NCBI GenBank assembly: GCA_016933055.1
Contig: JAFGBS010000014.1
Coordinates: 30,001-62,000 of the forward strand
DNA length: 32,000 bases
Direction: 5' to 3'
Source: Promethearchaeota archaeon
GTDB lineage: Archaea; Asgardarchaeota; Lokiarchaeia; Sigyniarchaeales; Promethearchaeaceae
Position numbers and translations under genes: made by a program. Shown here one piece after another: positions 29,421 through 30,116 of the stretch. Under the pieces are notes generated by a model. It was not told the DNA's origin and ran no database searches. It worked only from the letters and a program-made list of their open reading frames with translations. How positions within the stretch are numbered: position 1 is the first letter of the stretch; each line of letters opens with the position of its first letter.

Positions 29421-29606
29421 TTGAATATTTTTTAAACTAAATGAATTTGTGAGAGGATACGAGCTATGTGGATCTATAGATGGATCCAATACGAAAACAT
29501 GCAAAATATTATCAATTTATTGCGATTTCTGAAAATACCATTCTAACTGAGTTTCTACAAGCTGTTCATGATAGTTTTTCCAGTATTCCTCGGAAAAAAG
29601 GGAATA

Positions 29607-29614
29607 TTTATATA
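29607..29614 (+). promoter_or_regulatory. Candidate BRE/TATA box (TTTATATA) 24 nt upstream of structured element 2
   Basis: TATA consensus preceded by purine-rich GGAAAAAAGGGAA. It lies between convergent genes, so no annotated CDS needs a promoter here. Confidence 0.45.
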
Positions 29615-29638
29615 CTTCTTTTTCGCATTGGTATAGTA

Positions 29639-29748
29639 TAGGATAGGGGATCAGAAGTTATTCTATTTTTGTTTGTAAGTTTATTCAAGGCGATCAAATT
29701 CGGTCGCCAGCCCTTCTTTTTTGTTTGTTTTTGTGAGCCCCTATCCTA
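29639..29748 (+). ncRNA. Candidate structured ncRNA 2
   Basis: 29639-29656 pairs with 29731-29748 (16 of 18 positions). Internal hairpin GGCGATC/GGTCGCC at 29689-29708, U-rich linkers, and a T-rich tract downstream. Confidence 0.5.
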
Positions 29749-30116
29749 AACCCTATTAATTCCCAGTGAAAATTAATTTCTTTTGTTTTAATTAATTTTA
29801 GAATCTAAATACACGACTTATTTAGGTAGATATTGGAAATTGTGGATCTTCCAAATGTAATGTTTCCAATTTTCATTCAAATAGATCTAATCGAGATCCT
29901 TTTTTTGTGTGTCTATTTGAAACATTCCCACCTAACAATTCCACATTCTATTTTCAATAACTCTTAGAAATTCTTAGCTAAAATCTAATAAAATTAAGTT
30001 TATCTGCAATAAGCTTCAATCTAAAAAATAAAAATGTGTATCAAATCAAATCTGAATTATAAAATTTTTACTCAGTTTTCGGTTTTTAAGGGAAAAGAGG
30101 AAATTATTTTTTTCCA

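Follow-up and report, generated by a model that had tools for sequence, protein, structure and literature searches.

A probable stand-alone small RNA gene between convergent genes in one genus of Lokiarchaeia

The window, the whole 32,000-nt stretch of DNA analysed, belongs to a Lokiarchaeial genome (G000) of 3.76 Mb that is 91% complete and has a G+C content of 35%. Two of its genes, identified with Pfam as the D-aminoacyl-tRNA deacylase gene dtdA (28332-29420, + strand) and a gene for a B12-binding (corrinoid) protein (30117-30746, - strand), are convergent and both end toward a stem-closed element, which lies 215 nt past the dtdA stop codon on the same strand as dtdA. The features of the element and its surroundings are as follows:

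29583..29614, + strand: putative promoter block, comprising a ATTCCTCGG stretch, a purine-rich BRE-like tract and the TATA box TTTATATA; conserved in 7 orthologs
29615..29635, + strand: variable spacer from the TATA box to the predicted transcription start
29639..29657, + strand: closing helix, 5' strand; GGGGATCA.AAG invariant in 7/7 copies
29658..29688, + strand: single-stranded U-rich 5' arm, with AUUUUUG at 29665-29671 and UUUUUGUUUGU at 29666-29676
29689..29708, + strand: apical 7-bp hairpin, loop variable; helix in 7/7 copies
29709..29729, + strand: single-stranded C/U-rich 3' arm (AGCCCUUCUUUUUUGUUUGUU), with a second copy of UUUUUGUUUGU at 29718-29728
29730..29748, + strand: closing helix, 3' strand; variants GUGAGCCCC, GGGUUCCC and UAGAUUCCCU still paired
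29749..29790, + strand: 3' tail with a T-rich tract at 29778-29790, a possible termination region; moderate conservation

The element is closed by an inverted repeat: 16 of the 18 positions of TAGGATAGGGGATCAGAA (29639-29656) have their complement in TTGTGAGCCCCTATCCTA (29731-29748). The closing helix as a whole covers 19 positions (29639-29657 paired with 29730-29748) and consists of a perfect outer 11 bp followed by an A.G mismatch, UCA/UGA, a G.G mismatch and AAG/UUU. Enclosed by it are a U-rich arm of 31 nt on the 5' side and a C/U-rich arm of 21 nt on the 3' side, separated by the hairpin GGCGATC/AAATTC/GGTCGCC, which contains one U-G pair among its 7 bp; no conserved pairing is predicted within the arms. 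An earlier note, made from the letters of the window, had described the repeat, the inner hairpin with its U-G pair, the U-rich arms and the convergent neighbours, and all four were recovered here. The folding z-score of the element is -3.9 on the + strand and -4.1 on the - strand, and none of 200 shuffled sequences folds equally well. Perfect inverted repeats of this size (at least 11 bp with at least 4 G/C and a spacer of 40-220 nt) number 105 in G000, of which 19 are fully intergenic. Since this amounts to approximately one such repeat per 32-kb window, the 11-bp repeat alone is not beyond chance, and its significance comes from its conservation in relatives.

Syntenic copies of the element are present at seven loci from different samples, each between dtdA (+) and the B12-binding gene (-): the window, Promethearchaeota archaeon AMARA_1 (G001), and the contigs L078, L079, L080, L082 and L083. 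G001 is the single other genome of the genus in a set of 40 related genomes searched with BLAST, and gave the one true match, with 87% identity over 184 nt at the same locus. Across the element the window and G001 are 98% identical, compared with 65% and 88% for the flanking proteins. A protein search with dtdA in a large protein collection returned nine further proteins with 61-67% identity to the dtdA of the window; the contigs of five of these span the intergenic gap, and the element is present in 5/5. These five added loci score 105-158 bits against a model made from the first two copies, and covariance model scores across the orthologs lie between 105 and 161 bits.

The distribution of the element is narrow. 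It has a copy number of one in G000 by BLAST, and a search of 151 genomes of the order with model R1 gave only chance-level matches outside the genus; two weak matches of the same model in G001 were rejected on inspection, as the stems are absent. Model R2, which includes the seven sequences, found nothing new in 14 genomes of the family, with one copy per genome and in this genus only, and the element was not found at the dtdA-syntenic loci of 12 family genomes from other genera. A pattern scan of public genome contigs retrieved only G001 and one chance bacterial match, and two pattern scans of metagenomes retrieved nothing or an unrelated telomere-like repeat. In an outgroup clade (L084-L089), whose dtdA is 40-47% identical, the B12-binding gene (+) and dtdA (+) are arranged as an operon, and the approximately 72 nt that separate them lack the element; the element therefore goes with the convergent gene order of the genus. 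The pairing of corrinoid protein and D-aminoacyl-tRNA deacylase genes is conserved across both clades, with differing gene order. The predicted RNA is confined to one genus of Lokiarchaeia and would not be a core Asgard feature.

Conservation by segment was counted as invariant columns on a seven-way alignment that included the flanks. The 5' arm (28/31 columns) and the 3' arm (21/22) outdo the 5' and 3' strands of the closing helix (13/19 and 12/20, respectively) and the hairpin (10/20), such that the interior of the element is better conserved than its terminal repeats. The tail has 8/27 invariant columns over 29749-29775, and 10/35 are invariant over 29776-29810. Single-stranded arms that are better conserved than the surrounding helices have the look of a functional RNA, in which the helices would act as scaffolding whose sequence drifts and whose pairing is kept, and the functional contacts are probably made by the arms and by the upper part of the closing helix on its 5' strand. 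In that strand, GGGGAUCA.AAG is invariant while its partner drifts, which hints at a second role.

A second conserved block lies at 29851-29884 (CCAAATG..AAT..TTCCAATTTTCATTCAAATAG), between the element and the stop codon of the B12-binding gene. All 7 orthologs keep it almost unchanged within variable surroundings, and a convincing consensus fold was sought on both of its strands and not found. This block might belong to a longer primary transcript, act as a signal in the 3' UTR of the corrinoid gene, or serve as a binding site for a protein.

When folded singly, all seven sequences form the same closing helix and hairpin, the hairpin helices having energies of -7.5 to -12.7 kcal/mol. G-U/U-G changes account for variation in the loop and at some stem positions of the hairpin, and the 3' strand of the closing helix varies yet pairs with the invariant 5' strand through G-U pairs. 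Two copies show further changes. In the closing helix of L079, an extra A on the 5' side faces an extra U on the 3' side. Where the window has its A.G and G.G mismatches, L079 and L080 have A-U, or G-U/A-U, and in the hairpins of both a one-base deletion is accompanied by a shift of the stem to another register. The structure-blind MAFFT alignment has 95.8% standard pair cells, against 38-55% when the partners are slid by 1-3 columns, and no pair changed on both sides. On a model-fitted alignment, 97.9% are paired and 8 pairs are changed on both sides, a result as high as which was not reached in any of 500 shuffles; all 8 changes come from L079 and L080 and are register-dependent. Strict covariation rests on few events in two lineages, and clean covariation is not claimed. 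Of the conservation and covariation that the earlier note had suggested as a check in syntenic Asgard loci, the pairing is kept in seven loci, whereas clean covariation depends on the alignment.

Upstream of the element, the TATA box TTTATATA lies at 29607-29614, 24 nt before position 29639, with the purine tract CGGAAAAAAGGGAA ahead of it. The purine-rich BRE-like tract and TATA box had been proposed as a promoter at this distance; both are in place, and the block that contains them is conserved in the seven orthologous loci. The tRNA promoters of G000 read GAAAAA followed by TTTAAAT/TTTATAA, and the block of the element resembles them. Over 29583-29616, 25/35 columns are invariant, compared with 4/23 farther upstream and 3/19 in the spacer at 29617-29635, and conservation picks up again near 29634-29639. 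This succession of a conserved BRE/TATA, a free spacer and renewed conservation has the appearance of an independently transcribed gene. The centre of an archaeal TATA box usually lies near -26/-27 from the start, and a start at approximately 29631-29638 is predicted from this spacing and from the point where conservation resumes. Conservation 5' of the TATA box reaches approximately 25 nt (29583-29606), well beyond a normal BRE, and an inverted repeat, ATTCC...GGAAT, within the same stretch is a possible regulator site. The upstream block was searched for elsewhere in G000 and was not found.

The 3' end is less well defined. The T-rich tract that the earlier note placed after the element is present at 29778-29790, but as a proposed terminator it is weakly conserved, the tract being weaker in the six other copies (ATTTCATT). 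The element also contains internal U-tracts (U5 at 29666-29670, U6 at 29717-29722 and U5 at 29728-29732), and archaeal RNA polymerase is described as prone to terminate at U-tracts (PMC8716108). Given these tracts and the conserved paired 3' strand beyond them, either read-through is needed or shorter isoforms are made as well. Contigs from three sediment metatranscriptomes of the same study give zero cover of 29300-30200, which is neutral as to expression. In 5/7 orthologs the tail reads CUAACCCUAAC (L010:1650-1662), where the window has CUAAACCCUAU (29749-29760). CUAACCCUAAC has the letters of the vertebrate telomerase RNA template; the likeness is not kept in the window, telomere arrays are absent from the genome, and it is most likely a coincidence.

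A number of known identities were considered and excluded. Rfam 15 gave no match in the window at gathering thresholds, and at E-values of up to 10 over 29000-30500 it gave four chance-level matches, none overlapping 29636-29752. A known Rfam family and an IS end were the two identities that the earlier note had named as fatal to a new RNA gene: no family matched the element, and a MITE or IS end is at odds with one copy in G000 and one per genome in a single genus. No tRNA was found at the element, and the 5S, SSU and LSU rRNA genes are located on other contigs. A small protein is excluded: the element lacks an ATG, and none of its reading frames is conserved in the seven orthologs. Indels in L082, L080 and L079 disrupt the sole candidate frame (TTG at 29671, 26 codons), and the substitutions within it change the amino acid. 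C/D box sRNAs are characterised by a C box (RUGAUGA) near the 5' end and a D box (CUGA) near the 3' end, with a K-turn beside the terminal stem. The element has no UGAUGA, its stem-adjacent mismatches (A.G/G.G on the + strand) are not conserved, and a CUGA on the minus strand has no C box partner. H/ACA sRNAs combine a compact pseudouridylation pocket with an ACA/ANA box immediately 3' of the lower stem and an upper-stem K-turn or K-loop. In the element, the stem is followed by AAC or ACC with no conserved ACA, the 'pocket' would measure 31 + 21 nt, and the hairpin lacks tandem G.A pairs. A Y RNA of a Ro RNP was rejected as well, since PF05731 (TROVE/Ro60) is unmatched in G000, at 91% completeness, with positive controls in Deinococcus and Bacteroides.

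Other stem-closed elements were observed in the same genome. 'Element 1' (window 23973-24127) is GC-rich, 155 nt long and stem-closed behind a TTTATAAA box, with a z-score of -4.5 and a layout similar to that of the 29639-29748 element. It has no BLAST match in 13 genomes of the family, is absent upstream of the orthologous gene in G001, and is not scored by model R2 at E-values of up to 10. The word GCCCTYCTTTTT is common to both elements and occurs 4 times in G000, about the chance number by estimate; homology of the two is unsupported, and their layout may be convergent. An intergenic sequence of 65 nt at G000:C17:243413-243477, closed by an 11-bp stem, has a pyrimidine-rich interior and a TTTATATT box that starts 30 nt upstream, and may be a further small RNA gene. 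A 126-nt element with a 13-bp inverted repeat (ACATCTATACGGG) is present twice, at G000:C31:24799-24924 and G000:C36:77185-77310, in both cases after TTCCCGCACCAAGGACCGACCTATT, and this pair may be a repeated mobile or attachment-site element.

The earlier note had proposed a stand-alone ncRNA gene on the + strand with its own promoter, and comparison of the seven loci supports this proposal: the element is very probably a small non-coding RNA gene of this kind, restricted to one Lokiarchaeal genus. The transcript would start near 29636; its body would reach 29752 or beyond, and a tail may extend it to approximately 29790, giving an RNA of approximately 115-150 nt on the + strand with inferred ends. 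In this RNA, the closing helix of approximately 19 positions and the apical 7-bp hairpin would hold the two long U-rich arms open. Taken as a whole, a single-copy + strand RNA gene whose arms serve as a binding platform is the best explanation of the locus, and a probable one.

The same 11-nt word, UUUUUGUUUGU, occurs in each arm, and two equivalent protein-binding sites are suggested because the words are identical, invariant and unpaired, set apart by the hairpin and clamped by the stem. The consensus of the eukaryotic Sm site is RAU4-6GR, which AUUUUUG resembles. The invariant arms contain AUUUUUG (29665-29671) and UUUUUUG (29717-29723), although the flanking-purine rule is unmet and such words are frequent at 35% G+C. 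Three ORFs of G000 encode LSM-domain proteins (C6:356961-357155, C28:68324-68539 and C9:19525-19731). Archaeal SmAP rings possess a pocket that is selective for uridine-rich RNA (bioRxiv 10.1101/2025.07.28.667248). The two U5-6GUUUGU sites of the RNA would most likely be offered either to a protein that binds U, for instance SmAP/Lsm, or to targets rich in purines. In the former case the RNA would be a platform for a uridine-specific RNA-binding protein, engaged as two copies or through two faces, for which one of the three Sm-like (SmAP/Lsm) proteins of G000 is the best candidate. The RNP so formed might go on to base-pair with purine-rich RNAs. Binding of SmAP/Lsm as the mechanism is a tentative proposal, tied to the RNA by the motif and the presence of the proteins alone. 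Base pairing with purine-rich targets has a similar likelihood, and the two are not exclusive.

The strongest alternative retains the same RNA gene and makes it mainly a trans-acting antisense RNA, whose U/C-rich arms, for example GCCCUUCUUUUUU, would pair with purine-rich stretches, for example the ribosome-binding regions of mRNAs, a chaperone being optional. Invariant arms kept open by scaffolding helices are the usual layout of a base-pairing sRNA, and the invariant 5' strand of the upper closing helix opposite a drifting partner suggests a second sequence-specific role. However, no extended antisense match was found in G000, where the best complementary BLAST matches have E-values of at least 0.5 and lie inside coding regions. 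Pairing with SSU and 5S rRNA is at background level, and the most stable duplex with LSU rRNA, at -22.1 kcal/mol where the background minimum is -19.6 per 1.5 kb, consists mostly of G-U pairs. Near-invariance of 53 arm positions at 61-67% protein identity better fits a protein or a very conserved RNA partner, and the 11-nt word shared by the arms suggests a pair of equivalent sites for binding. A mainly antisense function is therefore considered rather unlikely, though still a serious competitor to protein binding.

It is much less likely that the locus holds no independent gene, and that the element is a structured part of the dtdA 3' UTR or its read-through transcript with an upstream block that is not a promoter. 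The common strand and the distance to the dtdA stop codon are in keeping with such a transcript, but the 160 nt from dtdA to the block are poorly conserved, and the far flank is 37% identical between the window and the others. The conserved block moreover has the BRE-plus-TATA form of the G000 tRNA promoters, and the spacer behind it, as long as a promoter-to-start interval, is not conserved.

The same fold could in principle be transcribed from the minus strand as an A-rich RNA antisense to the proposed one. Such an RNA would fold comparably in the window (z = -4.1), would be free of internal U-tracts, and has a weak TATA-like TTAATTTT approximately 25 nt from the stem in a moderately conserved stretch. 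The sequence changes in the helices, however, point to the + strand. One-sided changes on the MAFFT alignment add eight pair types of the G-C/G-U, C-G/U-G, U-A/U-G and G-U/G-C kinds in the + sense, and none of the A.C type that the minus strand could tolerate, about half being expected if transitions were unconstrained. On the minus strand the + strand wobbles become C.A, the closing helix has 3-4 mismatches in 7/7 copies against 1-3 on the + strand, and the hairpins of 4/7 copies (the window, L078, L082 and L083) are weakened. The model score is 21 bits, compared with 148 on the + strand, and the promoter on the + side is much better conserved, making a functional minus-strand RNA highly improbable. 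The earlier suggestion that the U-G pair of the hairpin favours the + strand is thereby extended, as the wobble-compatible changes in the seven copies fit that strand only.

An element acting at the level of DNA, such as a MITE relic, a site of recombination or inversion, or a palindrome bound by a protein, has in its favour the 11-bp terminal inverted repeats, of a size common in G000, but is equally improbable, given a single copy in G000 and, across 150 other genomes of the order, no copy except the ortholog, no adjacent recombinase or transposase gene, an interior more conserved than the repeats, and repeat changes that obey RNA wobble rules and not DNA complementarity.

As a + strand RNA, the element belongs to a known kind, the archaeal small non-coding RNA, and is a previously undescribed member without an Rfam family. 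Trans-acting archaeal sRNAs have reportedly been described in Methanosarcina, Haloferax and Sulfolobus. Like these, the element is intergenic, predicted to be independently transcribed, approximately 100-150 nt long, and provided with conserved unpaired regions between helices; unlike them, it is far more U-rich, and it has no homology to the described sRNAs. It resembles Sm-class snRNAs and SmAP/Lsm-bound archaeal sRNAs in having an A-U5-G word that is predicted to lie unpaired between helices, and in that it would be a small stable RNA transcribed from a promoter of its own; G000 also encodes three LSM-domain proteins as candidate partners. It differs from Sm-class RNAs in that its site is followed by U and not a purine and in that two U-rich sites lie inside a closed loop, where Sm-class RNAs have one before a 3' hairpin, and from snRNAs in matching no Rfam snRNA family and in being restricted to one genus.

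More distant likenesses concern layout. Y RNAs, which are bound by Ro60 in eukaryotes and some bacteria, are also approximately 100-120 nt long, with a long helix formed by the ends that has small internal mismatches and encloses a large pyrimidine-rich internal loop. In contrast to Y RNAs, the helix mismatches of the element are not conserved, there is no match to Rfam Y_RNA, and no TROVE/Ro60 protein was found in G000. In ENE-type elements, a U-rich internal loop clamps an A-rich tract in a triple helix. The element resembles these in layout only, with U-rich strands that face each other between a lower stem and a hairpin on top, but its arms are 31 and 21 nt long versus approximately 5 nt each, and no A-rich tract lies 3' in cis.

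No experimentally characterised ncRNA of Asgard archaea was found in the literature searched, and the element provides a comparatively supported candidate with a defined promoter, strand, fold and invariant surfaces. That it represents an Asgard small RNA assembling with Sm-like rings on AUUUUUG sites of canonical appearance, as a free-standing, proto-snRNP-like Sm RNP, is improbable on present evidence; if true, it would offer a testable prokaryotic model for the pre-eukaryotic origin of Sm-class RNPs. The RNA would thus bear on the origin of Sm RNPs if it is bound by SmAP, and would otherwise be one more lineage-specific regulatory sRNA, with a reach of a single genus.
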